From a virus, in the IMG/VR virus record IMGVR_UViG_3300032313_001394, positions 75,244 to 139,243 of that record: a stretch of DNA of 64,000 nt. One strand, given 5' to 3'. Under the pieces are notes generated by a model that saw only the letters and a list, made by a program, of their open reading frames with translations, did no database searches and was not told the origin of the DNA. The translations under genes were made by a program, and so were the position numbers. Of the stretch, positions 6,751 through 62,186 are shown one piece after another (the stretch's first letter is position 1; the number at the start of each line of letters is the position of its first letter).

Positions 6751-6989
6751 TATTTAATGTAGATATACTGTGACTTATTACGCTTTTCAAATGCTTTATC
6801 AGCTTTCCAATTTTGAATCTGCCATTCAGCTAATTCTTTACTTTGAAACGAAGCATAGTGTTCTACCCAATGTAGTCCAACTCGTTGAGATGGAGTGTAA
6901 TACGTTTGTGCTTCGGTTTCGTTTACTCTAATTCGATAAGCTGAGCAACTACTTAGTAGTACTGTTGCTAATATTAGTAATTTTTTCAT
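6750..6989 (-). CDS. small lipoprotein
   Basis: MKKLLILATVLLSSC lipobox. Confidence 0.7.
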   Translation of the reverse strand: MKKLLILATVLLSSCSAYRIRVNETEAQTYYTPSQRVGLHWVEHYASFQSKELAEWQIQNWKADKAFEKRNKSQYIYIK

Positions 6990-27329: not shown

Positions 27330-27364
27330 AGTGATATATTTTTATATTCGTATATAAATATATG

Positions 27365-30753: not shown

Positions 30754-31173
30754 TTACTCTAAATCTAATTCTAATTGATTAGCCGTATAATTTACAGTAC
30801 TTCCACTTACATGCCCATATGCGGTTGAAGTTGTTGTTAAAGTAAATGGTGGTTGCGCTCTTGTTACACTTAAATTCTGTATGAAATCATCTGTTACAAT
30901 AACACCACTACCACTAGTAGTACCACTACCATAAGTTACTTTAGTGTCTGTTTTACCTGCTTTATATGGATTTACATAATGTGGGCGTTGCCAATTTGGT
31001 GCAGTATCAGGAACAACCCATCCACCTTCACCAATAGGTGAACCAAAATCAGGACAGTCTTTAATTTTATCCAATTCCGAAACAATGGTTTCCCATTGCT
31101 TCGGTGTTGGTCCTTCTTCATTAACTGCTTTAACAAAACCTTTAAGCCAATAAATAAATTGCTCCTTATTCAT
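30754..31173 (-). CDS. hypothetical protein
   Basis: EQFIYWLKGF N-terminus followed by a low-complexity T/G/P tail. Confidence 0.7.
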   Translation of the reverse strand: MNKEQFIYWLKGFVKAVNEEGPTPKQWETIVSELDKIKDCPDFGSPIGEGGWVVPDTAPNWQRPHYVNPYKAGKTDTKVTYGSGTTSGSGVIVTDDFIQNLSVTRAQPPFTLTTTSTAYGHVSGSTVNYTANQLELDLE

Positions 31174-34840: not shown

Positions 34841-34860
34841 CGTATATAAATATATATTTT

Positions 34861-43936: not shown

Positions 43937-44647
43937 TTAAATGTATGCTTGTAAATTAAATTTTAACATTTCTAGTACTTCTTGTTTAGCTGTTTTAGCA
44001 TGATCAGCAAATACACCTGATACTTCTGATGTCATCATACTAGCACCCATATGCTTAACTCCACGACATGATACACAATTATGTGTTGCATGCATCATTA
44101 CCATAATACCTTCATTACCTTCAATTAATTTATCCATAGCATTATGAATAGCCATAGTTAATTGCTCTTGAATAGCACCTCTACGTGAGAAATGCTCAAC
44201 TACACGATTTAATTTTGATAATCCGATTACCTTTGATTCAGGACCAGGTACATATGCAATATGACATTTACCTAAGATTGCTTGGTGGTGATGAGAACAC
44301 ATTGATATTACTGGAATATCGCGCTCTAATACAATACCATTATAACCGTCTGATGGGAATGCTGTAATATCACCTAATACTTCATAACGGCCTCTCCATA
44401 AATCATTAACGTATGCTTTAGCAACGCGTTTTGGAGTGTTAGATGAGTTTGGATCGTTTTTCCAATCAACACCTAATGCGTCTAAGAAATTACCATATGC
44501 AACAGTTGCATTATCGATAATAGTTTGTTTTTCTTCTACGGTTAGAGATCGCTCTTTACCTTCGGTTTTAATGATTTGTTGTAAATGGAGTGAGATACCA
44601 TTTGCATTACCTGAATTGGTAATTTCTAAATTGTCTATTTTACACAT
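43937..44647 (-). CDS. folE: GTP cyclohydrolase I
   Basis: TPKRVAK, SMCSHH, GLSKLNR, IQEQLT, HNCVSCRGV. Confidence 0.95.
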   Translation of the reverse strand: MCKIDNLEITNSGNANGISLHLQQIIKTEGKERSLTVEEKQTIIDNATVAYGNFLDALGVDWKNDPNSSNTPKRVAKAYVNDLWRGRYEVLGDITAFPSDGYNGIVLERDIPVISMCSHHHQAILGKCHIAYVPGPESKVIGLSKLNRVVEHFSRRGAIQEQLTMAIHNAMDKLIEGNEGIMVMMHATHNCVSCRGVKHMGASMMTSEVSGVFADHAKTAKQEVLEMLKFNLQAYI

Positions 44648-44713
44648 ATAACTTTTATTTATTTATAACAATTAAATATAGATAAGAAAAGCCTGATAAA
44701 CAAGCTCTTCTAT

Positions 44714-44995
44714 TTATTTTATTCCTGCAATTTTATTCCAGCGATACTTAGTTTCATTCATTACTCCATCTTCTACAGATGTCATATTGCTTGTATCAAC
44801 TTCTGGTTTGACATCAATTAATTGATCATAATCATCCATAGATAATACTTGACCATCTTGGCAAGCTTGGATAATATTTTCAGTTACTTTATGTAATGTC
44901 TCATCATTAGTTGCATCTTCACGAGCAAATTCGAGTAAACGAATAAATAACGGTACATCAAATGTAACTACGTCTTGTGGATTTTGTTCTTCCAT
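44714..44995 (-). CDS. acidic hypothetical protein
   Basis: DVPLFIRLLEFARE; ends RWNKIAGIK. Confidence 0.75.
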   Translation of the reverse strand: MEEQNPQDVVTFDVPLFIRLLEFAREDATNDETLHKVTENIIQACQDGQVLSMDDYDQLIDVKPEVDTSNMTSVEDGVMNETKYRWNKIAGIK

Positions 44996-45033
44996 ATTAT
45001 TATTTAATATAAATATATTAGAGAAATAAATTT

Positions 45034-46563
45034 CTATAAGTTTAATTTAGAACCTACAGTAAAGAAGAATGTAGGTTTATCAAATGTAGATGGTATATTT
45101 GATTTAATATTAAAGTTAATTCGGAAACGTTTAGATAACGGAATATCAAATGAATTACCTAACATAACATTAAAATCTTTATTTACTCTCATTATTGGAT
45201 CACTCGTAATATAAGATGTCGGAGAATAAAGTAAAAACACCTCAGGTGTAAATTTAATTTTAGTTTTTGTTTCTAATGGCCTCATATAGAATCCAGTTAA
45301 TGACGGACCATACATTTGATCGCCTGATCCTAAGAATCCAGCAATTAAAGATACGTTATAACCTGCAACACCTTTTTTACCTAATAATTTAATATAAGTA
45401 TATCCAGCAAATGTTAAATGGTCTGTAAATGTAGTTGCATATGTTAATGAGTAATTTCGAACATGACTAATAGCACCGTTTGTAGTATACATTTTAGTAT
45501 ACTTACCTGTTAATGCTAATTGTTTGAAATTTAAGTGGATCATTGAAGTAGCACCCCACGATTCATTTCCCATTAACGATGCTTTAGATGCTGATACACC
45601 CAGTACTGGAGTAAATGTATTGTCTGCATTTTGCATTAATGCAAAGTCACCTTGTACTACTAATGGATTAGTTGTATTTACTGTTTTAGCTTTCTTTTCG
45701 TCTTTTTTACTATCTGATTTCTTTTCGTCTTTTTTGCTTTCACTTTTAGCATCGTCTTTCTTTTCTTCCTTACTTTCGGATTTAGATTCTGATTTGCTTT
45801 CTTCTTTGGATTCCGACTTTGATTCGCTTTTAGATTCAGACTTGGCTTCAGCTTTAGCCTCTGCTTTAGCTTCGGCCTTTGCTTCGGCTTTAACCCCTCC
45901 CGGAGATCCACCGCCTCCTCCACCACCGCCTCCACCTCCACCACCTGGAGCGCCTCCACCACTTGGAGCGGAACTACCCGCTGATGATGCGCTTGAACTC
46001 GCTGTAGATGATGCTGAACTAGATGCACTAGATGATGCGGTAGATGAAGCTGTGTTAGCGGCAGCACCTGCGGCTGTATTGGCTGCTGTACCTGAAGCTG
46101 TGTTTGCTGCTGTAGATGCTGCTGTATTGGCAGCTGTTGAAGCTGCTGTAGAGGCAGCGGTACTTGCTGCTGTTGCGGCCGCAGTAGCAGCAGCTGTTTG
46201 TGCTGCTGTTTGAGCAGCAGTCTGGGCAGCTGTCTGTGCCGCAACTTGAGCTGCTGCTTGAGCTACTACTGCTGAAATTGTATTTGAAATTGTTTGAGTT
46301 TGAGTTTGGGCAACTACTTCTTGTGCTTTACACACATATGCTTTCATTTGCTCATTTACCCATAATTGTACCTCTCCTTTAGCTGCTTCTTCATATGAAA
46401 ATGAACGTGCAGAACTACGATATACAATCAATACTGAACCCCCGATCGGAACAGTATATAATACCATCTGTTTCGAGCAGGGGTCAAAGTATGCGTTGGT
46501 AAGTACTTGTGCCTTACTTAAAAATGAAACAGTTAAGAGTAAGAATACAAATACATATTTCAC
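45034..46563 (-). CDS. exported protein with low-complexity stalk and C-terminal outer-membrane beta-barrel-like domain
   Basis: Signal peptide; AAQT/AAST, poly-G, AEAK, SESK repeats; alternating beta-strand C-terminus FFFTVGSKLNL. Confidence 0.75.
   Translation of the reverse strand: MKYVFVFLLLTVSFLSKAQVLTNAYFDPCSKQMVLYTVPIGGSVLIVYRSSARSFSYEEAAKGEVQLWVNEQMKAYVCKAQEVVAQTQTQTISNTISAVVAQAAAQVAAQTAAQTAAQTAAQTAAATAAATAASTAASTAASTAANTAASTAANTASGTAANTAAGAAANTASSTASSSASSSASSTASSSASSAGSSAPSGGGAPGGGGGGGGGGGGGSPGGVKAEAKAEAKAEAKAEAKSESKSESKSESKEESKSESKSESKEEKKDDAKSESKKDEKKSDSKKDEKKAKTVNTTNPLVVQGDFALMQNADNTFTPVLGVSASKASLMGNESWGATSMIHLNFKQLALTGKYTKMYTTNGAISHVRNYSLTYATTFTDHLTFAGYTYIKLLGKKGVAGYNVSLIAGFLGSGDQMYGPSLTGFYMRPLETKTKIKFTPEVFLLYSPTSYITSDPIMRVNKDFNVMLGNSFDIPLSKRFRINFNIKSNIPSTFDKPTFFFTVGSKLNL
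45690..46270 (-). repeat. coding low-complexity tandem repeats
   Basis: 12-nt period repeats encoding AAQT, AAST, AEAK, SESK and a Gly run. Confidence 0.85.
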
Positions 46564-47393
46564 TAAGCTAGTAGCTTATAATATTCTTTAAAATGTTTGA
46601 TACGATCTGGTAGACCAATTGTACCACCATTAACACGTTTTGTGATTTGAGTAACTACAGCATCGGAAGCACCACTATCAGCCATCTTGTGTAATCCGTT
46701 TTTAGAGAAAAACCAAGCAGCTGAGAGTAAGGCATATTTCGATGAAACCACATCTGGGTTAGACAAAATGTCTTCTCCAATGGACTTACCGAATGCAGTG
46801 TAGTTTTCTTTACCAGTTAACTGTATGTAACCTCTTCCGCGAAATTTATATCCTTCACCTGATGCTTCATTACCATTACCCATTCTACCTCCGTAGACAC
46901 GAGCAGCAATTTTAGCAGGTTTGCGTTCATACTGGGCAGCTAATGATGCGTTTGGAAAATATTTTTTAAATATTCCCATTAATCCTTTAGCTGAATAATT
47001 TAAATTTTCTTGAGTTGCGCGGAATCCACCTGATTCGTGTCCGCACTGTGCTAAAAAGTGAGCTAAACGTAATGGGGTATTGATAGCAAATTTAGCTGCT
47101 GTATCAGGAATCATTGCAATTACTGCATCAGGAATGTGTCCTTTTAAATTAGCTAATTTTAGATTACCTGAATTAGTAATTGGAGCAACTACTGGTGCTG
47201 CTGGAGTAGCAATACCAAATAATTTACCCCAAGTACCAGCTCCAACTATACCATCAGCTGTTAATCCGTTAGCTGATTGCCAAGCTTTAACTGCTGCATC
47301 TGTTTTAGGTCCAAATTTACCAATGGCTTCTATACCTAATTTTACTTGAAGCTTTTTTACATCTTCACCCTCGGATCCTAGCTTTAATAGCAT
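46563..47393 (-). CDS. endolysin: PG-binding domain plus GH19 muramidase
   Basis: ADGIVGAGTW; HFLAQCGHESGG, ENLNYS, FRGRGYIQLTG, TKRVNGG. Confidence 0.95.
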   Translation of the reverse strand: MLLKLGSEGEDVKKLQVKLGIEAIGKFGPKTDAAVKAWQSANGLTADGIVGAGTWGKLFGIATPAAPVVAPITNSGNLKLANLKGHIPDAVIAMIPDTAAKFAINTPLRLAHFLAQCGHESGGFRATQENLNYSAKGLMGIFKKYFPNASLAAQYERKPAKIAARVYGGRMGNGNEASGEGYKFRGRGYIQLTGKENYTAFGKSIGEDILSNPDVVSSKYALLSAAWFFSKNGLHKMADSGASDAVVTQITKRVNGGTIGLPDRIKHFKEYYKLLA

Positions 47394-47440
47394 CGTTTAT
47401 TGTTTTTATAGTTAATTATTACAGTTGTACTCTTTTACTC

Positions 47441-47860
47441 TTAGAACTGGATTTTATCCAATTTGTAAGTCAAACCTAATCCTGGTGTGAAGTTAGATCC
47501 AACTAGATTTCCAATGACCCAAATTTTAAGTCCTTCGGATTTTAATGGAGCGTATCCTATCCACACGTTAGGCTTATTTACATTATCTACAGGTTGAATA
47601 CCCATACCTAACATTAAGCGCTCACTAGCAAACATACGAATAACACCAAATTTCATAGTTTTATCAAAACTACCTGTTTTAGTTGATACCATTGGATCAG
47701 CGTCATACTTAAAACCAGCATAAATACCCCATCCTTTTTTGATATAACCACCTGTTAAGTATCCGTCCATACCTTTATTAGTAGCAGAACCGAAAAATTC
47801 TTGTGCGTTAGCAGCTACTGCAGACAAACACAAAATTGCAATCAATAATAACTTTTTCAT
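47441..47860 (-). CDS. small outer-membrane beta-barrel-like protein
   Basis: Signal peptide; Gly/aromatic alternating strands; terminal Phe. Confidence 0.65.
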   Translation of the reverse strand: MKKLLLIAILCLSAVAANAQEFFGSATNKGMDGYLTGGYIKKGWGIYAGFKYDADPMVSTKTGSFDKTMKFGVIRMFASERLMLGMGIQPVDNVNKPNVWIGYAPLKSEGLKIWVIGNLVGSNFTPGLGLTYKLDKIQF

Positions 47861-47863
47861 AGT

Positions 47864-48577
47864 TTAATTTTTAAATATATTCTTTTTTATCATACGTGAT
47901 ACTATCCTAGAAGCTGCTGTTTCCAACGCTTTTTTAGTGGTAATTCCGATTGTTGATTGATTAAATTTAATCTCATCAAATGAATCAGATAACGCACCTT
48001 GTTTTACTGTACTTGCTTCACCTAAGCCTGAACCAGTGATATACTCAGCAGTTTCAGCATTAACGAACTTAACTTGTAAGCCCAGCCTGGTAGTTTGAGT
48101 TTGCTTAACACCATCTTTTAATTTTAATTGTTCGTCTTCAGAAACAGAGAAGTCGTATACCTCTACATATACAAAATATTGTGCAAGCTTAATTTTTCCT
48201 CTACCATCTAATTTATTTTCTGTAATACCTGATTGAGAAGCTTGGAATTGTTTTACCATTCTATTCTTAATCTCGGCTTTATCTTCAGTAAAAGTAAATC
48301 GATTAGTTTCTTCTAAAAATTCAACTACAATATTTGTTAAACCTAAACCAACTCGTTTATCTTTTAATTCAGGATACATTGCAAATATCTCATCTGTAAT
48401 TCCAATTGATAATAATTGAATTGGAATTTTAGGTCCTTCATAATCAGATACAACATCTATTGATTGTTTCTTTTCAAAATCAGCTTGGTATGCTTCTGTC
48501 TTTACAGAACCAATAGTTTGTCCAAGCACAGGCAAACATAATAAAGAAAGAAATAAAATCAATAAATTAGCCTTCAT
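47864..48577 (-). CDS. CsgG-family exported protein
   Basis: Signal peptide; LEETNRFTFTE, VYDFSV, RLGLQVKFVNAET, KKALETA. Confidence 0.7.
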   Translation of the reverse strand: MKANLLILFLSLLCLPVLGQTIGSVKTEAYQADFEKKQSIDVVSDYEGPKIPIQLLSIGITDEIFAMYPELKDKRVGLGLTNIVVEFLEETNRFTFTEDKAEIKNRMVKQFQASQSGITENKLDGRGKIKLAQYFVYVEVYDFSVSEDEQLKLKDGVKQTQTTRLGLQVKFVNAETAEYITGSGLGEASTVKQGALSDSFDEIKFNQSTIGITTKKALETAASRIVSRMIKKNIFKN

Positions 48578-48863
48578 ATTCTTCTTCTTTTTTTTCTGCT
48601 TTAGTAGCTTCTGAAATTTGTTTTTTCATTCCTGTAAATTTATCTACTGAAGATAAACCTAATGAACCGAACGCAAGTAATGCTACTGCATTTACTAATG
48701 ATTCTGCAGGTGCGATATGTGCTTCAGAAAATGAATTTTGATACATTGTAATACACAATGTTAATGCAGCTAATAAACCCACAAATCGTTTTGATGATAC
48801 AGCACCTTTTTCATCAGCTAGTAATGAGTTAGCACCATCCATAAATTTTTTTAATATTTCCAT
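48567..48863 (-). CDS. holin-like two-TM protein
   Basis: SSKRFVG plus two TM segments and a charged tail; near the endolysin. Confidence 0.6.
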   Translation of the reverse strand: MEILKKFMDGANSLLADEKGAVSSKRFVGLLAALTLCITMYQNSFSEAHIAPAESLVNAVALLAFGSLGLSSVDKFTGMKKQISEATKAEKKEEEYEG

Positions 48864-48864
48864 T

Positions 48865-49017
48865 TTACCACGGTTGTTTTGATATTTTAGCTGCTATTTC
48901 ATTTGCTTTATCATTCTGATTGGTAAAATGTAGGTATACAAAATACATCTGAGTGCTAAAGCCAACTATAATTCCAGCTAAAACTAATTTTGAATAAATT
49001 TTATATACCTTTTCCAT
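48865..49017 (-). CDS. small single-TM protein (not in ORF track)
   Basis: MEKVYKIYSKLVLAGIIVGFSTQMYFVYLHF... 50 aa filling the operon gap. Confidence 0.6.
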   Translation of the reverse strand: MEKVYKIYSKLVLAGIIVGFSTQMYFVYLHFTNQNDKANEIAAKISKQPW

Positions 49018-49022
49018 TTTTA

Positions 49023-49580
49023 TTATCCTTCTATAGATTCTTCTACATCCTTTATTTTACCACATTTAAGACATTCTTCATCTCCGTCTCCATCAGCATC
49101 ACCCCATACGTGTTCGCATTGGCGATGAGCGAAGTATTCATCGATTTTACCGTCGCCATCATGATCTAAACCATCCATTGTGCCATCTCCATCTTCATCG
49201 ATTTCAACGCCCTTCTTTTCGGTAGTTGGTACAGGAGTTGGTGCGTCACCTCCTTTAGTATCGGATAATGACACACCATCTTCCTCGTCCATTTTCTGAA
49301 CTAACATTTTATCTTTATCTGTATCAGAGAACCAGTAATCAATAATTTTACCATATGAACCAATGAATGCTCCAAGTAACAACAACATTAATTCTTTCCA
49401 TTCTCCTGCAATATCAGTGCCTTGAACAATAGCGGCAAATATACCACCAATTATTAACATAAATCCACCTAAAACTATAGCGGTAATATACCATCTACGT
49501 TTCATCATTGCATTTAATAGTTCCTTAAATCCCGTAGGAGTAGGTTGTGACATAGGTTGTTCTTCTTTAAATAACTTCAT
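49023..49580 (-). CDS. two-TM membrane protein with DxDGDG repeats
   Basis: Two TM segments, IIDYWFS, DEDGDG/DHDGDG/DADGDG, CEH...CLKC. Confidence 0.75.
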   Translation of the reverse strand: MKLFKEEQPMSQPTPTGFKELLNAMMKRRWYITAIVLGGFMLIIGGIFAAIVQGTDIAGEWKELMLLLLGAFIGSYGKIIDYWFSDTDKDKMLVQKMDEEDGVSLSDTKGGDAPTPVPTTEKKGVEIDEDGDGTMDGLDHDGDGKIDEYFAHRQCEHVWGDADGDGDEECLKCGKIKDVEESIEG

Positions 49581-49586
49581 TGTTAA

Positions 49587-49892
49587 TTACCATTTAGGAG
49601 CTTCTTCTAGCTCTTCTTTAGCTGTTTTAGGTTTTGGTTTAACGGGAGCAGCAGCAGGAGATCCTGCGTTTTTATTTATTATAATAGTTTTTGGAGCTGC
49701 TGCAGGTGCAGCGGCTGCTTGATTGATATTAATTACTGGTGCTGGTGCTGATACAGCTGTTGCTGGTTCATCTTTTTCACCTGTAATAATTTTTGTTACA
49801 TATGCTGCAATACCTAATGATATTGTACTTACAACTGTAATTAAAACTCCTTTAAGAGATTTTCCTGTTGATTCTTCTTGTTCTTCTGCCAT
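49587..49892 (-). CDS. single-TM Ala/Pro-rich protein
   Basis: TM followed by PVININ and AAAP repeats. Confidence 0.7.
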   Translation of the reverse strand: MAEEQEESTGKSLKGVLITVVSTISLGIAAYVTKIITGEKDEPATAVSAPAPVININQAAAAPAAAPKTIIINKNAGSPAAAPVKPKPKTAKEELEEAPKW

Positions 49893-49893
49893 T

Positions 49894-50229
49894 TTATTTC
49901 TTTAACGATTTAATTTTAGTTTTTACCTCTTCAACTTCTTTTTTTGTGTCTTCAACAAATGTTTTTGAAGATTCAAAAGCATCTGTAGCATCAGCTAGAT
50001 TTTTAGTTTTAATAGCTTTTTCAATTTTTTCAGCAACTGCTTGAGATTCATCAATTTGAGCTTCTAACTTCTCTTCAATTTCATCAATTGCTTGTAAAGC
50101 TTTCTTAGCATCTGCTGCTAAACCAGGAGCGTATTTAGCTGATTTATCAATTAAAAGTTCAGCTTGTTCTTCTAATTTGTCAATTTTAACAAATAATCCT
50201 TTAATAAAGGCAAATAACTTTTTGATCAT
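49894..50229 (-). CDS. coiled-coil protein
   Basis: Amphipathic N-terminus; E/K/A heptads. Confidence 0.7.
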   Translation of the reverse strand: MIKKLFAFIKGLFVKIDKLEEQAELLIDKSAKYAPGLAADAKKALQAIDEIEEKLEAQIDESQAVAEKIEKAIKTKNLADATDAFESSKTFVEDTKKEVEEVKTKIKSLKK

Positions 50230-50240
50230 TTTTTTTTTAT

Positions 50241-50609
50241 TTATCTTTTAATTATTAATGGTTTTTTAACTGTACCTCCATTGATATCAGTTAATGTTAT
50301 ATCGTATAATCCATCTTCTAAATCTTTGAAATCGTATATTTTAGTTACAATCTCACTTTCAGCAGTTAATGGTAATGTTTTTGTAGGTTCTACAGCAGCA
50401 AATTTATATATTTGTACAGAGTACTTAGCTCCAGTCGTAACCGCGTATTGTACTGTAACTTGACCACCTGTTGATACTACACTAAGTATATCTGTGGACT
50501 TTGCTGTAACTCCTAATTTAATTTCAGGTGTAGATAAAACTTCTATATCACTGCATCCTGCGGTAATAAATATAAGGCCGATTAAAACAATTGATAATAA
50601 GTTTTTCAT
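50241..50609 (-). CDS. lipoprotein with Ig-like beta domain
   Basis: Lipobox TAGC; LEDGLYDITL resembles T9SS-CTD/Ig-like folds. Confidence 0.7.
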   Translation of the reverse strand: MKNLLSIVLIGLIFITAGCSDIEVLSTPEIKLGVTAKSTDILSVVSTGGQVTVQYAVTTGAKYSVQIYKFAAVEPTKTLPLTAESEIVTKIYDFKDLEDGLYDITLTDINGGTVKKPLIIKR

Positions 50610-50611
50610 AT

Positions 50612-52405
50612 TTAAAAGTTGTTATATCCTGTTAATTTTATTGTTTCTGTGTTTAAATTTATTCCCAACTGAGATCCGCTAGTTGATGCGGCATCTGTTG
50701 CAGAAGTAATTTTAATAAATGAATTAATATCTAATCCGCTTACTAATGTGCTGAATTTCAATTTGAATGGAATCACAGCACCTTTAATTGGAGTTTTTAA
50801 TTTTTGATCAATTGCTCCGAATTTTACTTTACCTGTTGCCGAATTAGCAAATACATACCAATCGTTAGGTACTTCTGAAGCCATTGATTCGAACTTAACT
50901 TTGCTTGGATCATATGCGAATTCAAATTGTAGAGCAGCTACTTCATTTCCGTTTGTATTAACTGAAACTGGTATTTCAATTGAATTTGAAGTTACTGTTA
51001 CGTTTTTAATATTAACATCAATAGCAGGAACAGATTGAGGAGTATTAATAAATCCTATAGTTCTATTCATTATAGCTTTATTAGCAATACTTTTATTTAA
51101 TGATACTACTGCATTTGTTTTTATAACACCACCAACAACTACTTGAGATGAATGTGAACGATTTATATCACCAGGAAGTACATATTTTACATTAATTGTT
51201 AATGGTGTTCCTGGGGTAGCTGGAGTAGTGTATTCATAAGCACGCTGTGCATTAGTAGGTAAAGTAGTAAATACGTTAGATGGAGTAGCAGCGTCAAATT
51301 CCGTAGCTTTAAACGTAGGTAAACTCATCCACCCATTAGATCCAACTGTATATCCTTCTGGTAATACGATTAATTGATTTACACCAACTGCTTGTGCGTA
51401 TAATTTAGTTAAATCACCACCATCGAATCCGTTTGATCTGTTAACATCTACCGCCCAATATCCCATACCAGTTATAATACTAGTATTTTTATATGTTCTA
51501 TCTAGATTTTGAGATACAAATTCTGCTTGTGCTGTTGTATAATCTGATACTGATACTGCTGAGTTCATTATACCTGGTAATTGATCCATATTAGCCATTA
51601 CCATAATTTGATAAGCCGTATTTGCAGTTAGTAATGAATCTACAATATTTACTGTACCATTTGCTGTTACATTAAACATTGGTCCAGTATTATCAGCTTT
51701 TTTAAATAATACTTTAACGTGAGTTGGATTAATATTTCCATTTAAATCCAATACTGCTTTAACAAATTTCTTAGCGTCTGGATTTTGTGTAATTACTGTA
51801 GTTAATGGTATTTCGTTTAAACAAGCACCTGATGAACCATTTTGGTTAAATGATGCTGCAAAGTTCATTTTAATTGGATCCCATGCATCACCTACTGCTG
51901 TTGTTTTTAATCTAAAACGTAATTTTAATAAATCACCATAAGTATTATAAGGTAGTGGTGAATTAGTAGCCCAGTTTAAATAAACACGAATAATTGTTTT
52001 AGGACCACCTTGAGTAAAACTGTATCCCGCATTGTTATAATTTTGATTACCATTAGGGGATGTGTTATTACCATTTCCAGCAAATGAATAACCTGGATAT
52101 GTGTAATTATCCATTGTAATACTAGCACCTGTAGGTAATACACCACCATTTCCACCTGTTCCTGTATTAACTACATTTATAAAATCAAATGCAGCATTAT
52201 TGAATTCAAAATCAAAATACAATGAACGAGAAGTTGTATTTCCATTACCATTTAATTGGACATTGACGATGAATTCATCACCTTTGTCAATAACTCCACC
52301 AGCAATATCAACTTTAGTAGAGTCATCAGCTAATCTAATTTTTGGTTCTTGCGCGAACGCGGTTAAACTTACTAGCGATAGTAGTAAGAATAATAATTTT
52401 TTCAT
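50612..52405 (-). CDS. exported cohesin/dockerin-like domain protein
   Basis: Signal peptide; cohesin-like GDEFIVNV...FDFEFNN and IEIPVSV...ALQFEFAYDPSKVKF; dockerin-like DVNRSNGFDGGD. Confidence 0.7.
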   Translation of the reverse strand: MKKLLFLLLSLVSLTAFAQEPKIRLADDSTKVDIAGGVIDKGDEFIVNVQLNGNGNTTSRSLYFDFEFNNAAFDFINVVNTGTGGNGGVLPTGASITMDNYTYPGYSFAGNGNNTSPNGNQNYNNAGYSFTQGGPKTIIRVYLNWATNSPLPYNTYGDLLKLRFRLKTTAVGDAWDPIKMNFAASFNQNGSSGACLNEIPLTTVITQNPDAKKFVKAVLDLNGNINPTHVKVLFKKADNTGPMFNVTANGTVNIVDSLLTANTAYQIMVMANMDQLPGIMNSAVSVSDYTTAQAEFVSQNLDRTYKNTSIITGMGYWAVDVNRSNGFDGGDLTKLYAQAVGVNQLIVLPEGYTVGSNGWMSLPTFKATEFDAATPSNVFTTLPTNAQRAYEYTTPATPGTPLTINVKYVLPGDINRSHSSQVVVGGVIKTNAVVSLNKSIANKAIMNRTIGFINTPQSVPAIDVNIKNVTVTSNSIEIPVSVNTNGNEVAALQFEFAYDPSKVKFESMASEVPNDWYVFANSATGKVKFGAIDQKLKTPIKGAVIPFKLKFSTLVSGLDINSFIKITSATDAASTSGSQLGINLNTETIKLTGYNNF

Positions 52406-52893
52406 AGTTTATCTAACAATTTAGTAGTTAATGAAACCGATGCTTTCTTCAATGCATTTGATAATGACGTTTGATTAAAACCACCAGCTTCAGAAATTAC
52501 TAAAGTAGACATTGATATCTCACTTGATTTTTCTGTTGCAGTTTTTGTTTTTATAACTTTATCACCTTTCAGTAGTTTACCTACCATACTGATAATAACT
52601 GATTGTTTATCTTGATGCATTATACCTATACTCACATTTGATGTTTCTACATCTAAAAATACGATATCGACTTGTACTGAATAATCAGCAGCGTCTTTGG
52701 TAGGTACTAATGAATAATTTTCGGATAATAGTTCTTCAACTATATTTTTGACACCAAATGCTAAATTTCTATTTCCCGCTAATTTACCGATTTGGATTTT
52801 GTTTTCTACGTTGTGTAGAAATAACTTAGGAGTTTGTGCTTGGCTAATGAATGATGCCAAAACTAATATTAATATAGCAATTACTTTCTTCAT
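52402..52893 (-). CDS. exported CsgG/LptE-like alpha-beta protein
   Basis: Signal peptide; FGVKNIVEELL and FNQTSLSNALKKA resemble 47864-48577. Confidence 0.6.
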   Translation of the reverse strand: MKKVIAILILVLASFISQAQTPKLFLHNVENKIQIGKLAGNRNLAFGVKNIVEELLSENYSLVPTKDAADYSVQVDIVFLDVETSNVSIGIMHQDKQSVIISMVGKLLKGDKVIKTKTATEKSSEISMSTLVISEAGGFNQTSLSNALKKASVSLTTKLLDKL

Positions 52894-53046
52894 AGATAGA
52901 ACTAGTTCCCCCATAAATATAGTATATACTACAAAGCCATAGTTGAATATTATAGGCGTAGTGTGGATTTTTCAACGAACATTATGGCAATTTGTCGTTT
53001 TCGTAGAAGTGTTATATACGTATTGTCGAACAAAATATAAAATAAA

Positions 53047-53208
53047 ATGCCATTATTAGCAATCTCATTATTAATTAGTACATTATTTAGCGTAGTTTTA
53101 GTTAAATTTGACAATACTGAGCGGAAATCAAAACAACCCATCTCTAACCGCAGACATACTGGTGGAAGAAACGGGTTATTAGATATTAATAGAGAAGTAA
53201 TCGATTAG
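53047..53208 (+). CDS. small TM peptide, only plausible plus-strand gene
   Basis: MPLLAISLLISTLFSVVLVKFD... 53 aa with A-rich leader AAAATAAAATG. Confidence 0.45.
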   Translation: MPLLAISLLISTLFSVVLVKFDNTERKSKQPISNRRHTGGRNGLLDINREVID

Positions 53209-53222
53209 TAAAAACGTTATAC

Positions 53223-53570
53223 CTATAATGTTATAGGTTCTATTTTAATGCGCTCTAATGAATCTTTTTCAATGATTTGTTTGAGCGCTTTAATTTTCTT
53301 CTTAGTTTGAGTAAGATCTTTTTTATGTTGGATTAATTTATCATCAGTTTTTTTCTCTTTAAACCAACTAGCGGCAAAATCAGTTTTTTCTGTTTTATTT
53401 GCTTCATCCCATATTTTACGATATTCAAGTGCTTTAATTTCAGCATTGAGTTTCTGCTCCATACCTAATTCAGTACCTAATTTTTGTCTGTAAAATGTCA
53501 TGTCTTGACTAGGCATCGGACCTCCAACGGCTAATCCAAGCATTATAAGTAATTCTTTTAAATCTAGCAT
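53223..53570 (-). CDS. hypothetical protein
   Basis: 115-aa ORF, hydrophobic N-terminus, coiled coil. Confidence 0.65.
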   Translation of the reverse strand: MLDLKELLIMLGLAVGGPMPSQDMTFYRQKLGTELGMEQKLNAEIKALEYRKIWDEANKTEKTDFAASWFKEKKTDDKLIQHKKDLTQTKKKIKALKQIIEKDSLERIKIEPITL

Positions 53571-53573
53571 AAC

Positions 53574-53705
53574 TTATCCTTTTAATAGTTGTTTTTTATT
53601 ATCGTTGCATTCACATTTACATTTAGGACAATCAAATGCTAATAGAGTACAAATACATCCTAAACCAAATCCAGCCAATGAGGCAATTGCAATTGTTGTT
53701 ATCAT
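53574..53705 (-). CDS. small Cys-rich membrane peptide
   Basis: MITTIAIASLAGFGLGC... downstream of tRNA-Glu; shorter than the track ORF. Confidence 0.5.
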   Translation of the reverse strand: MITTIAIASLAGFGLGCICTLLAFDCPKCKCECNDNKKQLLKG

Positions 53706-53720
53706 AATAATAAATATTTG

Positions 53721-53792
53721 TAGCCCCAACGGGAATCGAACCCGTGACTCATCCGTGAAAGGGACGTGACTTAACCGCTTGTCGATAGGGCC
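53721..53792 (-). tRNA. tRNA-Glu(TTC)
   Basis: GGCCCTA/TGGGGCT acceptor; CGTCC-CTTTCAC-GGATG; ACGGG-TTCGATT-CCCGT. Confidence 0.92.
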
Positions 53793-53795
53793 ATT

Positions 53796-53901
53796 TAGGA
53801 AAGTAGAAGATGGGTGCGTGGACATCTACTTTTATGATTGGCATTTCTAACCGATCGTACCTGCCCTTCCTACAGTTAAAGGATACATCCCAATCAACCT
53901 A
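53796..53901 (-). ncRNA. candidate multi-helix ncRNA inside tRNA cluster
   Basis: Closing TAGG/CCTA; stems TGATTGG/CCAATCA and AAAGTAGA/TCTACTTT; inner TCCT/AGGA hairpin. Confidence 0.55.
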
Positions 53902-53903
53902 TG

Positions 53904-53978
53904 AGTTAAGTGCTGGATTCGAACCAGCGGTTTTATCGTTTTGCAAACGAGCGCGTTTGGCCACTCCGCCAACTTAAC
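53904..53978 (-). tRNA. tRNA-Cys(GCA)
   Basis: GTTAAGT/ACTTAAC acceptor, U73, loop TTGCAAA, GCTGG-TTCGAAT-CCAGC. Confidence 0.9.
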
Positions 53979-53983
53979 TTATG

Positions 53984-54054
53984 CACGTCCTAAAGGATTC
54001 GAACCTTTATCATCGCTTTTGGAGAGCGGTATTCTACCATTGCACTAAAGACGC
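53984..54054 (-). tRNA. tRNA-Trp(CCA)
   Basis: GCGTCTT/AGGACGT acceptor, G73, loop CTCCAAA, AAAGG-TTCGAAT-CCTTT. Confidence 0.9.
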
Positions 54055-54312: not shown

Positions 54313-54936
54313 TTACTTAAATGTAAATCCAGTTAATTTTTCTATTTGTGCTAATGGAACTTCGTTATTTTGAAATCCATCTGATGGAGATAAGTCATTA
54401 TTAAATAGATAGGCATGCCATTTACCTGCCACCTGAACTACTTTCCAACATTGAGTAGGAACTGATACTAGACCAATCTTTTTTGCTTCACCAACTGAAC
54501 CACTCCATACTCTTACTTTTGAACTAATAGCTGCCCAATTTCTAGTTGCAGTTTCTAATGATTTCCAATCTCCAGCATTTAATCTATGTGTTTGAGCAAC
54601 CATATTTGAAAAATAGAAACACTCATCTTGTACTGCTTGTGTTTGGCAAAGATTATCTGCTGCGGGCATTACGTGTCCTCTATCGTATCCGCTCTTTACA
54701 TAGTAAAATGCAATATTAGTTTCATCTACTAATTGTGGGTCTGGCTTAAAATTGTCTTTACGTTTTAAAGGTGTAGGACAACCTACCATTGCTTTTGTTG
54801 TTTCCCATTGTACTAATACTGGGTATCTTTTTGATTTACTGAAGTGTGTTGTGTAGTTTGTGTGTTTGATTACTACAATGTCTTGTGCTGTTAAACCAAA
54901 TGATGCGAGTAATAATAGTAATAATAATTTTTTCAT
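54313..54936 (-). CDS. exported DNA/RNA non-specific endonuclease (NucA-like)
   Basis: Signal peptide; GYDRGH, FYFSNMVAQ, LNAGDWKSLE. Confidence 0.9.
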   Translation of the reverse strand: MKKLLLLLLLASFGLTAQDIVVIKHTNYTTHFSKSKRYPVLVQWETTKAMVGCPTPLKRKDNFKPDPQLVDETNIAFYYVKSGYDRGHVMPAADNLCQTQAVQDECFYFSNMVAQTHRLNAGDWKSLETATRNWAAISSKVRVWSGSVGEAKKIGLVSVPTQCWKVVQVAGKWHAYLFNNDLSPSDGFQNNEVPLAQIEKLTGFTFK

Positions 54937-56495: not shown

Positions 56496-57113
56496 TTATT
56501 GAATTTTTGGGAATAAAACTGTGTCCATAAAATATTTAGCACGTTCTGCACCTAATTTAGCTTTTAATACATTATATGTACGTTCATTTTTAGATTGTTG
56601 TTCGCAATAATAATTTTGTGCTTCAACTACTAATTTAGGGTCAGCAAATAGACCTACTGTTTCAGTATACGATTCAAATAAATCAGTTGCTTCACGACAT
56701 AATCGAACCATTTCTTCAGTACCTGGTCTGATTGCTACAGCATGTTCTGAAAATATATTATTAGCCCATTCAGGTAATGGGTATGGTGTTTTAAATTCGT
56801 GGTTAATGAATTTATCTGGTGAATATGTAACTGGAGACAAATCAATAAATGCAGCTAATGGTTTTTCATTAGTGCATATAATATCAAATCCAAATATTGG
56901 ATCTGCGTAATTTAATTGTGGAAATGCTGTAAAGTGTAATACTTCTAATGCTCTATCACTATAGCGTTCAATATGAGCTATACGAAACGAATCAGAAACA
57001 TATCTGGTGTTTTCCCACCCGAAATCTTCTGTTTCGATTTCAAATCCATTATCTTCAATCAGAATACTTTCTAAAATATTAGCTGTTTGATCCAGTAGTG
57101 TTTTGTAATTCAT
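56496..57113 (-). CDS. ferredoxin-dependent bilin reductase, PcyA/PcyX-like
   Basis: FRIAHIE, VLH, FP, PIFGFDI, AAFIDLSP, LPEW..IFS, QNYYCEQQSKNERT, FMDTVLFP. Confidence 0.88.
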   Translation of the reverse strand: MNYKTLLDQTANILESILIEDNGFEIETEDFGWENTRYVSDSFRIAHIERYSDRALEVLHFTAFPQLNYADPIFGFDIICTNEKPLAAFIDLSPVTYSPDKFINHEFKTPYPLPEWANNIFSEHAVAIRPGTEEMVRLCREATDLFESYTETVGLFADPKLVVEAQNYYCEQQSKNERTYNVLKAKLGAERAKYFMDTVLFPKIQ

Positions 57114-57597
57114 CTAATATGTTAATTATGAATTGAAATCCTTTATTTACCTCGTCGGCCCAATCATCACTTTGAACCGCTCTAATTGATCCTACTGCAT
57201 CCATCATATTATCGAAATCATACATTCGACCTGATCCGTGTATTTTACTCTTCATCATTTGGCCACCAAATGCTAATGCAAGATAGTTTAAATAGATATG
57301 TGGTAATATTGTACTATTACTTAACGTTGATAAGTAATTATTATATTCGAGTGTAGATGGCATTGTAAATGTAATTGGTGTGCCTAATTCTGTTAAATCC
57401 TCAAATATTTTTACATTACGAGTTAAATCTGGGTGAGGTAATGTAAATGATTGTTCTATTATTTTAAATATAGAATGTTGTTGTTGTAAATATCGTACAT
57501 ATTGCTCAACAGGTAATTCTCCACGAAACATTCGCTGGTTAAATTCCATTTTTTCTGCTTTACTGTGCAGTTCAGATGTTGCTTCTTTTAATTCCAT
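57079..57597 (-). CDS. heme oxygenase
   Basis: LKEATSELHSKAE proximal His; HIYLNYLALAFGGQMM distal helix. Confidence 0.88.
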   Translation of the reverse strand: MELKEATSELHSKAEKMEFNQRMFRGELPVEQYVRYLQQQHSIFKIIEQSFTLPHPDLTRNVKIFEDLTELGTPITFTMPSTLEYNNYLSTLSNSTILPHIYLNYLALAFGGQMMKSKIHGSGRMYDFDNMMDAVGSIRAVQSDDWADEVNKGFQFIINILDELQNTTGSNS

Positions 57598-59261: not shown

Positions 59262-60035
59262 CTAAACTTCCCTCTTGTCACCGTATGCAATGATGTGATC
59301 TCGTCCTGAAAAATTATATGAATGTGCTGTACAGTAATCTAATACTATTGGGTACATTTTAATTAATTCTTCACGAGTATCACCAGCAGGCATAATCCAT
59401 GTTTTATGTTTTGGTATATTAAAGCGTTTTCTGAATGCTTCAATTTCATACATTAATTCAGGTGTACCATCCCATACTGGTTTAAAATGGTAGTTCTTAT
59501 GGTATGCTAATAATTGGCGAATTGCATCATATTTTTCTCTATATTTATTATGTTGATCAATCATTTTCTGATCTACAATTTTACCTTGTGGTGTTTCAAC
59601 ACCAATTACTGGGATTGAATTAGAGAATTTAGGTGATAATGAAATAACATCAATACGATGATCAGTAATTAATGGATGTGACCCTTCAGTTTCAATAGTT
59701 ACAATACCTTTCTTAGCGTGTAGTGCTTTAAATAAATTAATTATTTCATTACACATTTCAGGGTGCATTGTGGGAGATCCACCAGTTAGCATCAAATGAT
59801 TAATGTCCCAATTATCAGAAAAGAACTGCTTAATATCAGTTAATGTATATTTACCTTTTTCTGGATGGATTGATGTATACCATGAATCACACCACCCACC
59901 TTCACCAAAGTAACACCTATGAGTACATCCTGTAGTACGTACAATGATATGTGGTTTACCAGCTAGTGAACCTTCAGTTTGAACGCAACGATATACTTCA
60001 ATTATCGGTTGATTTTTAGTATAATCTAGTGCCAT
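59262..60035 (-). CDS. queE: 7-carboxy-7-deazaguanine synthase (radical SAM)
   Basis: QTEG, RTTGCTHRC...WCDS, TGGSP, IETEG, SLSPK; que cluster. Confidence 0.9.
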   Translation of the reverse strand: MALDYTKNQPIIEVYRCVQTEGSLAGKPHIIVRTTGCTHRCYFGEGGWCDSWYTSIHPEKGKYTLTDIKQFFSDNWDINHLMLTGGSPTMHPEMCNEIINLFKALHAKKGIVTIETEGSHPLITDHRIDVISLSPKFSNSIPVIGVETPQGKIVDQKMIDQHNKYREKYDAIRQLLAYHKNYHFKPVWDGTPELMYEIEAFRKRFNIPKHKTWIMPAGDTREELIKMYPIVLDYCTAHSYNFSGRDHIIAYGDKREV

Positions 60036-60385: not shown

Positions 60386-61420
60386 TTATTTGGCGTATTC
60401 AACTAATACTTTTTCTACTGCTGCTTTAGCAACTTCCCATGTTACTGGACCTGTTTCATCAGCATACTCAACTGGATCTGGACGTCCTAAACGAATAAAT
60501 GCTTCGATACGTTCAACTGATGCTGCTGACTTATAGTCTGAATACCATTTGAATGCTCTTGTTTCAGGACGATAATAGAATTTAATTGGTTTGTATGATG
60601 TATTAGTACGTTTATATACTTCATCAAAATCTAAACCTAATTTCTCACAGCATTCTAATCCATCTTCTAAAATAGTAAATTTATTTCCATCCAAATATGG
60701 AGTATAGTGATATACTAATTCAGAATCCCAGTTACCAATTTTAAATGCTTCCATATCGGCATCACGGAATTCTTGACGGCAGTCTGGATAGATCTGGTGG
60801 TCACCGCTGTGGATCCCCATAGCAATTGCTACTTCTTGTTTACCTCCCCATGTTTTTGAAAATTCGGGTACTGTTTTAATTAAATTTTCAAATTCATTTA
60901 TATCAGGATAAGATTTTTCTAACAGTTCAGGTGGCATTTTATCGGCCCATTCTTTTTTGTGTTCTTCAACATATCGTTTATAAGCATCATCTAAATTTCC
61001 TTTAGTTGCTATTGATAGAGCAGCTGCTTGGATTAATGAAGCGAAAATCTTATTACGATTTGGTACAACAGTTTCTTTCATGTTGTCTTGCTCGTAATGT
61101 CCTTCTGGTACATCGTTTCCACCTGTAACTAATGCCGAATGAAGTAAATCTTGTAATCCATCTAATTTAATAATTTGATGTTTTATTAATGGGAAATTTT
61201 CACCAGTTACTGTAATTGTTCCTAATTGATCTTGTTCTGTTTTTTGAGAACATCCATTTAGATACTCAACCAATGAAGCGGCGCGTTCTAATTCAACACG
61301 GTGTTTCTGACCGTAATCAAATGATAATGCTGTAACTTCATAACCATTAGCTAATAAGTGAAGTAATAATGTTGAGGAATCCATTCCTCCGGATAATGAT
61401 AAAACTGCTTTTTTAAACAT
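60386..61420 (-). CDS. queC: 7-cyano-7-deazaguanine synthase
   Basis: SLSGGMDS, FDYGQKH, TVVPNRN, HSGDH..YPDCR. Confidence 0.92.
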   Translation of the reverse strand: MFKKAVLSLSGGMDSSTLLLHLLANGYEVTALSFDYGQKHRVELERAASLVEYLNGCSQKTEQDQLGTITVTGENFPLIKHQIIKLDGLQDLLHSALVTGGNDVPEGHYEQDNMKETVVPNRNKIFASLIQAAALSIATKGNLDDAYKRYVEEHKKEWADKMPPELLEKSYPDINEFENLIKTVPEFSKTWGGKQEVAIAMGIHSGDHQIYPDCRQEFRDADMEAFKIGNWDSELVYHYTPYLDGNKFTILEDGLECCEKLGLDFDEVYKRTNTSYKPIKFYYRPETRAFKWYSDYKSAASVERIEAFIRLGRPDPVEYADETGPVTWEVAKAAVEKVLVEYAK

Positions 61421-61706: not shown

Positions 61707-62186
61707 TTAAATTGGAGTATATTCTTCTTCATATGAAGCTGAATTACGTCCATTTTCAAATACTTCTACTTTAGTTACTCTAACTCTATAATAAGTTTCT
61801 TCTTGAACAAATTCATCAATCTTTTTAAATAGATATTCAGCAAAACGTTCAGCACCTGTATAAGGTAAAATACGTAATTGAATAATTCCATCTGCTTCCA
61901 TTTGTTTGAATTGTTCTAAATACGGATCATCTTCAGCAATAATTGTTGTATGATCTAATAAATAATCAAACCATTGTTTTGGATTCATTCCATCGATATT
62001 ACCGTTAGCACGTTTCATACCACCGAAATCCCATACCCAATTACGTTCGTCTAGATCTCCTTCGAAATCAACTTTAAAAGACACTGCATACCCATGTAAG
62101 AATCTACAGTGGGTTCCTTCTGCTTTCCACTGTCTAAATACAGTAGAGAATCCATCATATAATTTTGATGACTTAAATGTAATCAT
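61707..62186 (-). CDS. queD: 6-carboxy-5,6,7,8-tetrahydropterin synthase
   Basis: HCRFLHGY, WVWDFG, LDH, AE, VFE. Confidence 0.9.
   Translation of the reverse strand: MITFKSSKLYDGFSTVFRQWKAEGTHCRFLHGYAVSFKVDFEGDLDERNWVWDFGGMKRANGNIDGMNPKQWFDYLLDHTTIIAEDDPYLEQFKQMEADGIIQLRILPYTGAERFAEYLFKKIDEFVQEETYYRVRVTKVEVFENGRNSASYEEEYTPI

Follow-up and report, generated by a model that had tools for sequence, protein, structure and literature searches.

Several described systems offer parallels for phage-encoded assemblies directed at the bacterial envelope. Among phages, the nearest are the curli clusters of pelagiphages, in which CsgG, CsgF, and CsgA/B are encoded together in HTVC008M-type and HTVC023P-type phages and for which the authors, in the portions of these reports available to us, propose a role in exclusion or cell aggregation ("sibling capture") (PMC7029224, PMC9599517). 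On the side of the host, the type A cargo of the Bacteroidota type IX secretion system (T9SS) is described, in the accessible part of an account of that system, as possessing a C-terminal sorting domain (PF18962) and using the PorV shuttle (PMC12618676). Spanins have been the subject of a survey (PMC6139136). A further parallel is provided by the two-component spanins (e.g., lambda Rz/Rz1), which combine an inner-membrane N-in protein with an outer-membrane partner and are encoded beside holin and endolysin genes. Here we analyze a block of 12 genes (g01 to g12) in the virus record IMGVR_UViG_3300032313_001394; the window to whose positions all our coordinates refer is the terminal 64 kb (64,000 nucleotides [nt]) of this 139,243-base record, the completeness of which is put at 84% by CheckV. 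The source is a large myovirus-type lake phage with Flavobacterium-type bacteria as hosts. We propose, tentatively and with somewhat less than even confidence, that the block encodes a late-made outer-membrane or surface assembly that would use the host T9SS. This proposal draws on the invariable co-occurrence of five of its genes, their phage-only spread, the export signals of their products, the CsgG fold of g09, the T9SS tails of g02 homologs, the finding of PorP/SprF in the relatives of a Flavobacterium genome associated with the cassette, a promoter motif shared with blocks of structural genes, and the dependence of Flavobacterium phages on T9SS and gliding genes.

Like the pelagiphage clusters, the block is a phage-borne, multigene, exported outer-membrane set with a CsgG-fold protein; it is likewise widespread in aquatic phages, and in both cases, on the available portions of the pelagiphage reports, the role is a proposal. 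It differs in being devoid of CsgF, CsgE, and curlin repeats, in having CsgG-fold proteins without a lipobox or membrane hairpins, in the partners of these proteins (a cohesin/T9SS protein, a protein joining a linker to a probable barrel, and an anchor in the inner membrane), in its linkage to an endolysin, and in its hosts, which are Bacteroidota rather than SAR11. The common ground with these nearest described phage systems is limited to the CsgG-fold component and to a function that is still a matter of proposal. We found no description of a phage cassette of such a makeup in the literature searched, subscription journals being outside its coverage. The idea of an undescribed envelope machine, raised in a first-pass annotation of this DNA, survives as a co-conserved exported set with a CsgG-fold member, though not as a set of CsgG-type secretion pores.

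The block comprises 12 back-to-back open reading frames (ORFs) running from 52914 down to 45034, separated by gaps or overlaps of a few bases, on the minus strand, where every gene of the window lies; the contiguous 12-gene run of the first-pass annotation is thereby borne out. Pfam, above its cut-offs, names two of the proteins (g02 and g11) and PHROGs one (g11), NCBIfam yields nothing solid for the 12, and PADLOC matched none of them. N-terminal signal peptides with a cut site at a glutamine are present on g01, g02, g09, g10, and g12 and a lipobox on g03, and g05, g06, g07, and g08 contain hydrophobic membrane segments, in keeping with the several transmembrane proteins noted earlier. The genes for the capsid, portal, terminase, baseplate wedge, and tail fibers lie within the first 65 kb of the record, 60 to 120 kb from the block, whereas the window contains replication, nucleotide, sugar, and 7-deazaguanine-type genes along with four tRNAs. 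With the structural genes located elsewhere in the record, the block is not one of virion genes and is distinct from ordinary tail components. A reading of its products as parts of the tail or virion was rejected on this ground and because they bear Sec or lipoprotein signals.

A search of viral contigs with exact peptide patterns of g09 recovered 155 relatives, the best 80 of which were kept; the 62 loci that extend 4.5 kb or more upstream and 2 kb or more downstream of g09 were taken as informative, and hidden Markov models were built on the window proteins aligned with their relatives. Homologs of g01, g02, g05, and the C-terminal domain of g12 were found beside g09 in every one of the 62 loci, and the postulated co-conserved set of exported envelope proteins can thus be specified as these five core genes out of the 12. 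The remaining seven (g03, g04, g06, g07, g08, g10, and g11) are accessory or movable: of the informative loci, 39 carry g03, 22 a g06-type gene, and 44 a g08-type gene, with g04, g07, and g10 confined to close relatives or to the window phage. At least five gene orders are seen among the carrier loci. The commonest is g08-F7-lysin-g01-g02-g03-g05-g09-g12, and the window-type order is g01-g02-g03-g05-g06-g08-g09-(g10)-lysin-g12; others include g01-g02-g05-g08-g09-g12, g02-g05-g09-g12-g01-...-lysin, and an arrangement in which the lysin is encoded on the opposite strand. In relatives, the g05 stop overlaps the g09 start, and start/stop overlaps also connect g09 with g12, which suggests a fixed stoichiometry of these three products.

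The g09 family is nearly missing from genomes of the host family, a relative being found in 3 of 301, and the three loci with this family in genome_contigs are all on contigs of metagenome-assembled genomes (MAGs). The complete carrier records measure 32 kb, 130 kb, and 308 kb, and a relative of the capsid protein of the window phage is present in just one of the three, which indicates that the cassette moves between unlike phages. The core, at about 4.8 kb, takes up 15% of the complete 32.1-kb phage. Near-identical or related DNA is present in many lake-water metagenomes (a statement of presence), and contigs from four lake or wetland metatranscriptome runs, 90 to 99% alike, extend over many parts of 44000-54000, again attesting to presence rather than to transcription or its level, with no meaning attached to uncovered stretches; one 845-nt contig from an RNA library comprises the 5' end of the lysin gene, g10, and the 3' end of g09. 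Taking these findings together, we view the block as an "envelope cassette" that is confined to phages, moves between them, and has merged with lysis genes; its five core products are made for the host envelope.

The core is also found in the Flavobacterium phage vB_FspM_immuto (NC_055915), where it corresponds to gp014-gp019 in the order g02'-g02-g05-g09-g12-g01. The two phages share the five-gene core, with g09 being 62% identical. The immuto protein gp015 is 243 amino acids (aa) long and retains the T9SS sorting domain, whereas the 597-aa g02 of the window is without it; further, g03 is missing from immuto, the endolysin gene of this phage is found some 6 kb downstream of the core, and the annotations are hypothetical or "cohesin domain-containing."

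The two proteins initially described as CsgG-like are g09 (47864-48577; 237 aa) and g01 (52402-52914; 170 aa), both of which are exported core components. The AlphaFold2 model of g09, built on a 40-sequence alignment (pLDDT, 81.4; pTM, 0.73), recovers CsgG (4uv2/4uv3) as its best Foldseek match (E, 5.8e-9; TM score, 0.52-0.57), and alignment of the two by VIA gives a Z score of 13.6 with a root mean square deviation of 3.1 Å over 171 residues at 15% identity. The next-best families, with Z scores of no more than 10.3, are Cj1090c, PelC (9.3), FlgT (8.9), LptE (8.8), and the TolB N-domain. A fold search of BFVD returned two matches at an E value of ≤0.001, one of them named CsgG and neither informative on function, and sequence-profile searches of the PDB gave nothing useful for g09 or g01. 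The protein g01, which is short and of CsgG/PelC/LptE size, has a signal peptide ending in SQAQ ahead of a T and is related to g09 as a distant paralog (hhalign probability, 94.9%; E, 4e-8); it also weakly matches NCBIfam PRK11627 (E, 2.3e-4), far under the cut-off of that model. Neither protein matches Pfam CsgG (PF03783) at an E value of ≤0.1, whereas divergent members of the g09 family pass its cut-off of 20.8 bits (P0243, 39.7 bits; P0250, 45.8 bits). Hence, the description of the pair holds at the level of fold and paralogy, and the direct Pfam match is wanting.

What sets the phage versions apart from E. coli CsgG (4UV2/4UV3, PF03783), with which g09 shares its fold, is the lack of the features of a membrane pore. 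Divergent full-length family members outside the phage clade have lipoprotein signal peptides ending in GC or AC; in contrast, those of the phage clade end in GQ ahead of a T, with no conserved lipobox Cys. The g09 segments equivalent to the CsgG hairpins TM1 and TM2, SVSEDEQLKLKDGVKQTQTT and STVKQGALSDSFDEIKFNQ, are, as judged by sequence, polar and charged; S144, S146, E147, and E149 are invariant in them, and they are shortened in some relatives. Moreover, none of the 12 block proteins was matched by the partner families csgF, csgE, and csgA/B. Because the phage clade is without the lipobox and its hairpin segments are charged, with invariant acidic residues, the earlier idea of outer-membrane secretion pores of the CsgG type finds no support. 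We read g09 and g01 instead as predicted Sec-exported, periplasmic proteins with a CsgG fold, devoid of a lipid anchor or membrane-type hairpins and possibly forming rings. The combination of either with the barrel candidate g12 resembles the pairing of a CsgG/LptE-fold protein with a barrel partner, as in PelC with PelB, LptE with LptD, and FlgT; this likeness is at the fold level, with Z scores near the level called common, and the block has no genes for polysaccharide or lipopolysaccharide export. The g09 family has 6,298 relatives in a large protein collection, some of them labeled CsgG by JGI, and 295 matched representatives at 50% clustering, from which we take it to be a narrow family. 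Several of its distant members (P0203, P0216, P0233, P0231, P0250, and P0251) are either fused to caspase (Peptidase_C14) domains or form the C-terminal domain of Ser/Thr protein kinases past a long linker, suggesting that the CsgG-like module has been reused outside secretion.

The core protein g12 (45034-46563; 509 aa) consists of a signal peptide, a small disulfide domain of about 55 aa with two invariant Cys residues (DPC...PC), a disordered, low-complexity linker of about 220 aa (rich in A/T/S/Q, with a G run and KSE repeats) that is highly variable in length across the family, and a C-terminal domain of 214 aa that is conserved. This last domain is a probable outer-membrane beta-barrel: weak matches to OMP_b-brl (PF13505) were seen in 4 of 23 members (best E, 0.012), and hhalign against the host OMP_b-brl gave 62.9% over 55 columns, in a partial and out-of-register alignment. 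The 10 best named Atlas neighbors of a g12 homolog are outer-membrane barrel families with scores of 0.93 to 0.94, a language-model level that a third of shuffled proteins also reach. When the domain (A7) was compared with seven host PorP/SprF proteins (PF11751), hhalign gave 2.7%, and there was no Pfam match; the phage record was without a match to Phage_OMP (PF24653), the PDB yielded nothing when searched with sequence profiles of the C-terminal or N-terminal domain of g12, and PF27936 is listed for one g12 relative. With a whole g12-type protein from one carrier locus (L017) as the query, 735 relatives were recovered; a word-index query with g12 residues 296-509 recovered none, though close relatives exist. 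The second protein that had been called beta-barrel-like, g10 (47441-47860; 139 aa; C terminus ...KIQF), is exported and limited to close relatives (BLAST matches in 10 of 84 loci), had no PDB or Pfam match, and is unrelated to the g12 C-terminal domain (0.4%). Its signal peptide and C-terminal F are all that speaks for a barrel, so that of the two suggested barrels g12 alone is probable.

The other membrane component of the core, g05 (49587-49892; 101 aa; C terminus ...PKW), has, in its family alignment, an acidic cytoplasmic N terminus, a single membrane segment at residues 15-33, and a Pro/Ala-rich periplasmic tail with an invariant ...P-x-W end. The tail shows short beta segments and no coiled coil, and no sequence match was found in the PDB. 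These features establish g05, at the level of prediction from its alignment, as a protein anchored in the inner membrane with an extended periplasmic tail. Two accessory proteins, g06 (49023-49580; 185 aa), which has an acidic tail with a Cys motif, and g08 (48567-48863; 98 aa), which has a charged C terminus, each display two hydrophobic segments and a charged tail in their family alignments. They are thus holin-like in predicted shape, but the holin families in Pfam, PHROGs, and NCBIfam match neither, and the holin-like gene of the first-pass annotation (g08) stands on shape and not on family membership. The g08 gene has two placements, one within the core and the other upstream of the endolysin. 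The small g07 (48865-49017; 50 aa; C terminus ...QPW) is a single-pass membrane protein of close relatives, with BLAST matches in 12 of 84 loci. The lineage-specific g04 (49894-50229; 111 aa) is coiled-coil-like and without a signal peptide; it had no BLAST match in the 84 loci compared, and its Pfam coiled-coil matches are weak and all under the cut-off. The segment holding it (49831-50231) is insertion-like, given that, in an RNA-library contig of a related phage, 49830 is connected to 50232 via 61 other letters. Family F7 (in L017, L020, L047, and others), which is absent from the window, comprises proteins of about 200 aa encoded between the holin-like gene and the endolysin in the commonest order, with a membrane anchor at the N terminus and an end rich in beta structure (...YGVGYYYKLK); PHROGs has no match for it, for the accessory families F9, F10, and F16, or for the g08- and g06-type proteins of the relatives.

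The link to type IX secretion comes from g02 (50612-52405; 597 aa), an exported core protein. It matches Pfam Cohesin (PF00963) at residues 464-543 with 30.9 bits against a cut-off of 24.1. Among 23 homologs scanned with Pfam, the cohesin domain was found in 18 and the T9SS sorting domain Por_Secre_tail (PF18962) in 8 (best E, 9.1e-12); these eight have an extra C terminus of about 90 residues with YPNP, GxY, and K-x-x-I-K motifs, and immuto gp015 carries the same tail (E, 3.1e-7). The window g02, in contrast, ends directly past its C-terminal cohesin domain (...LTGYNNF). The cohesin half of an earlier "cohesin/dockerin-like" label is therefore secure; as to the other half, Pfam dockerin has no match in g02 or its 23 homologs, and PDB profile matches are faint, being to cohesin and, at profile positions 311-334, to the dockerin of ScaH (8ajy_B; E, 0.75).

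Two bases past the g02 stop begins g03 (50241-50609; 122 aa), the Ig-like lipoprotein of the first-pass annotation, which has a lipobox reading ITAG before the Cys and whose Ig-like domain weakly resembles the T9SS C-terminal sorting domain. Acidic residues directly follow the lipobox Cys in 14 of 15 family members by script, the single miss being an artifact of the script; we take this to resemble the Bacteroidota signal for surface-exposed lipoproteins. Eight of the 15 members weakly match Por_Secre_tail (best E, 7.9e-4), and the family aligns in register with the sorting-domain tails of the g02 homologs (hhalign, 57%; E, 1.1e-4). The two forms of the domain are strictly complementary: among the 74 loci with a full-length g02, 51 have a tail-less g02 with a separate g03 and 23 a tailed g02 without g03, and none has both or neither. 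The likeliest explanation of this pattern is that the sorting domain was split off (or fused on); in the window lineage, the domain is missing from g02 and would be replaced by the lipoprotein g03, encoded exactly in its place. PorP/SprF, a component of the T9SS, is encoded by all 13 relatives examined of a Flavobacterium MAG whose assembly holds a cassette contig. On these sequence grounds, the g02 cohesin family is tied to the host T9SS. Like type A cargo, its tailed members combine a Sec signal peptide with a canonical C-terminal sorting domain; they differ in being phage encoded and, in the window, in having a tail-less cargo followed by a separate lipoprotein that resembles the domain. 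We know of no described T9SS cargo with its sorting domain supplied as a separate lipoprotein beside the cargo gene.

Directly upstream of g01, and overlapping its first ATG, is a promoter-like motif, TATATTTAT (52913..52921, minus strand). The 8-mer ATATTTAT singled out in the first-pass annotation has a copy there (52913-52920) that overlaps the same ATG, and the likely true start of g01 is M8, at 52893. Across the window, this 8-mer shows no enrichment (23 copies versus 29.8 expected); the 7-mer ATATTTA, however, occurs on the coding strand across the genome in 35 of the 62 upstream intergenic gaps of at least 35 nt, against about 4 expected, and it is this frequency that marks the motif as promoter-like. 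TATATTT has 104 coding-strand copies, 36 of which are intergenic, mostly 20 to 50 nt ahead of start codons. Two flavors can be distinguished: TTTC(T/C)TnATTATATTTAA, which ends in A and is dense ahead of small genes (70-92 kb of the whole record, G000), and (A)TATATTTAT(A), in which the motif ends in T without a TTTC box and which precedes blocks of structural genes (G000, 18774, 22516, 54735, and 66023) as well as g01. Further examples of the motif in the window are at 34846-34853 and 27354-27361. The two flavors are probably early/middle and late promoters, in which case the copy ahead of g01 would mark late expression. The next TATATTTAT copy (45009..45017, minus strand) lies at the downstream edge of the block, 22 nt ahead of the gene that follows g12 (44714-44995), an arrangement that fits a single late-type transcription unit for the block.

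The endolysin g11 (46563-47393; 276 aa), without a signal peptide, combines a peptidoglycan-binding domain with a GH19 muramidase domain (PG_binding_1, E of 6.6e-12; Glyco_hydro_19, E of 1e-10; both above cut-off) and belongs to phrog_181, "endolysin" (E, 1.4e-71), confirming its initial identification. An endolysin of this family is found in 54 of the 62 informative loci; its median distance to the closest core gene is 141.5 nt, and in 37 of the 54 it is within 300 nt of one, but its position varies, being before, inside, or after the core. The reverse association is much looser. An endolysin-centered search gave 80 loci, 77 of them new, with lysins 76 to 94% identical, and a g09 relative was missing from 67 of the 77, among them a few short loci, cut off near the lysin, in which other core genes remain. 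Phages with 76 to 82% identical endolysins had no g09 relative within 8 kb, save for short loci ending near the lysin. Since cassette-free lysin loci are common, it appears that the core seeks the lysin rather than the reverse. In the eight such loci that we read, the lysin stands alone, with no holin-like gene or spanin-type pair adjoining. Lysins of this architecture, 76 to 82% identical, occur alone in many other phages (L104-L170), including contigs of 180 to 330 kb, so the movement of the lysin gene is independent of that of the cassette. A gene for a lipoprotein of 59 to 61 aa adjoins the lysin gene in L109 and L124. In the window, we saw no canonical spanin pair. Three small predicted lipoproteins are encoded singly on the minus strand (5212-5385, 5387-5575, and 6750-6989; 57, 62, and 79 aa), none next to a coiled-coil membrane partner, and these may be exclusion or spanin-type lipoproteins. 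A second muralytic enzyme (9129-9752, minus strand; 207 aa; Phage_lysozyme, E of 3.1e-19) has a hydrophobic N terminus, MKKIVITAMLAALWIG..., and could be a signal-anchor-release or exported lysozyme; either it or g11 may be the working endolysin.

On our tentatively favored reading, the block would be transcribed from the late-type promoter together with the holin-like proteins g06 and g08 and the endolysin g11. Its products g12, g09, g01, and g05 would build a platform in and under the outer membrane, and the host T9SS would carry g02 to the surface, directly or in the company of g03. There, the cohesin modules of g02, and perhaps dockerin-like modules, might bind partners or one another, so that the surface of the infected cell is re-dressed at the time of release. 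The effect could be exclusion, protection of progeny, or the sticking together of cells. In Flavobacterium columnare, phage resistance maps to T9SS and gliding genes, according to the accessible part of one report (bioRxiv 10.1101/2020.10.02.323337). If Flavobacterium phages depend on the T9SS and on gliding structures in this way, masking these structures would exclude competing phages and stop progeny from sticking to debris; alternatively, a cohesin layer might glue neighboring host cells together. Several points weigh against this reading. PF18962 finds no match in the whole phage record at an E value of ≤0.01, and the window copy of g03 has no Pfam match, Por_Secre_tail included; with no sorting-domain match in g02, g03, or the record, use of the T9SS by this phage rests on its relatives and on the split-gene argument, which may reflect one evolutionary event and not 74 independent ones. 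The assembly function is predicted from sequence and fold throughout, as are the g12 barrel and the contacts between cassette proteins, and the RNA-library contigs speak for presence and not for expression or timing. The tight linkage to the endolysin and the two-segment membrane proteins points at least equally to a role in lysis, and about 15% of a 32.1-kb genome is much to devote to exclusion.

These last two points lead to a somewhat less probable, yet serious, alternative, namely, that the cassette is a lysis device that breaches the outer membrane and does the job of spanins in Bacteroidota phages. Here, g05 in the inner membrane, g09 and g01 in the periplasm, and g12 in the outer membrane, with a linker that could cross the periplasm, would form an envelope-spanning complex that tears or fuses the membranes once the holin-like proteins have fired and the wall has been removed, with g02 and g03 docking to the T9SS translocon or jamming it open. 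The closeness of the endolysin to the core would be natural for such a device: the endolysin and the g08- and g06-type proteins, placed variously before, inside, or after the core, behave like parts of a lysis cassette, the topology of g05 (N-in, with one helix) is that expected of a spanin subunit in the inner membrane, the window offers just the three lone small lipoprotein genes in place of a canonical spanin pair, and the share of the 32-kb genome given to the core would be easier to understand. The fit to known spanins is nevertheless imperfect, as the cassette has neither a coiled-coil periplasmic domain (that of g05 being Pro/Ala-rich) nor a short lipoprotein (g03 being an Ig-like one of about 100 aa), and it has five conserved parts rather than two, one of them directed to the surface. 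It is hard to see what a surface-bound T9SS cargo would do in membrane fusion, phages with closely similar endolysins have no g09 relative nearby, and g06 and g08 belong to no holin family that we searched. With about the same limited probability, the core could be the means by which many Bacteroidota phages complete lysis, joining spanins and disruptin as a third kind of outer-membrane disruptor; with g09 and g01 as rings, it would engage the T9SS translocon via its T9SS-addressed cohesin protein and rupture the outer membrane after the endolysin has cut the wall. If true, this would be the first phage system known to exploit the T9SS.

The same sorting-domain evidence that favors delivery of g02 to the surface (the tails of g02 homologs, the likeness of g03, and the complementarity of the two) would also suit a blockade of the T9SS, in which a tailed g02 or the lipid-tethered mimic g03 binds PorV/SprA from the periplasm, bringing secretion and gliding to a stop, while the other core proteins hold the plug. 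A lipid-anchored sorting domain might well act as a concentrated competitor, and Flavobacterium phages, on the partial evidence cited above, use T9SS and gliding surface structures. We nonetheless regard this as improbable: the acidic residues behind the g03 lipobox Cys, which we presume to be a surface-lipoprotein pattern, are ill suited to a periplasmic plug, the binding is a prediction, and a five-gene set is elaborate for an inhibitor. Less probable still is a curli-type (type VIII) channel, with g09 and g01 as a lipoprotein pore exporting a fiber subunit. It is CsgG that best matches g09 in structure and that lends its name to JGI-labeled relatives, divergent members do pass the Pfam cut-off, and pelagiphages carry CsgG/CsgF/CsgA-B clusters; yet the phage clade lacks the lipobox, the hairpin equivalents are charged and contain the four invariant residues, g09 fails the Pfam CsgG model, and no curli partner family is represented in the block. 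We give equally little weight to the view that the genes have no joint function and are unrelated exported accessory genes piled up near lysis genes. Accessory genes often cluster by lysis cassettes, and 7 of the 12 genes do vary between lineages; against this stand the presence of the five core genes in every informative locus, through several gene orders and in phages of 32 to 308 kb, and the overlapping start and stop codons of g05, g09, and g12 in relatives.

Other genes of the window provide the setting. About 1.4 kb upstream of the block is a gene (54313-54936, minus strand) for an exported DNA/RNA nonspecific endonuclease with a signal peptide (Endonuclease_NS; E, 7.3e-36); its immuto homolog, gp012, is in a matching place, with a C-type lectin protein coming next. 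A 7-deazaguanine modification of the DNA is suggested by genes (43937-44647, 59262-60035, 60386-61420, and 61707-62186) for GTP cyclohydrolase I, a radical-SAM enzyme, QueC, and a PTPS/QueD-like enzyme. A heme oxygenase and a ferredoxin-dependent bilin reductase are encoded at 56496-57597 and a GroEL-type chaperonin at 31166-32800. The ORFs at 53574-53825 and 53810-53977 overlap tRNA-Glu, tRNA-Cys, and tRNA-Trp (53720-54054) and are probably not genes; the RNA-library depth is very high at 53686-54000, which fits tRNA-like sequences from many organisms.

How Bacteroidota phages pass the outer membrane is an unsettled matter, and the cassette provides a concrete candidate with many carriers (155 viral-contig stretches). 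Should a role in lysis not hold, the cassette would amount to a surface structure built by the phage with borrowed type IX secretion of the host, for which the literature searched holds no description. The core is open to experiment, as the cultured phage immuto carries it and the Baltic Sea host of that phage, Flavobacterium sp. LMO8, is in culture. Finally, the probable sorting domain in the form of a stand-alone lipoprotein constitutes a natural experiment on how T9SS signals work.

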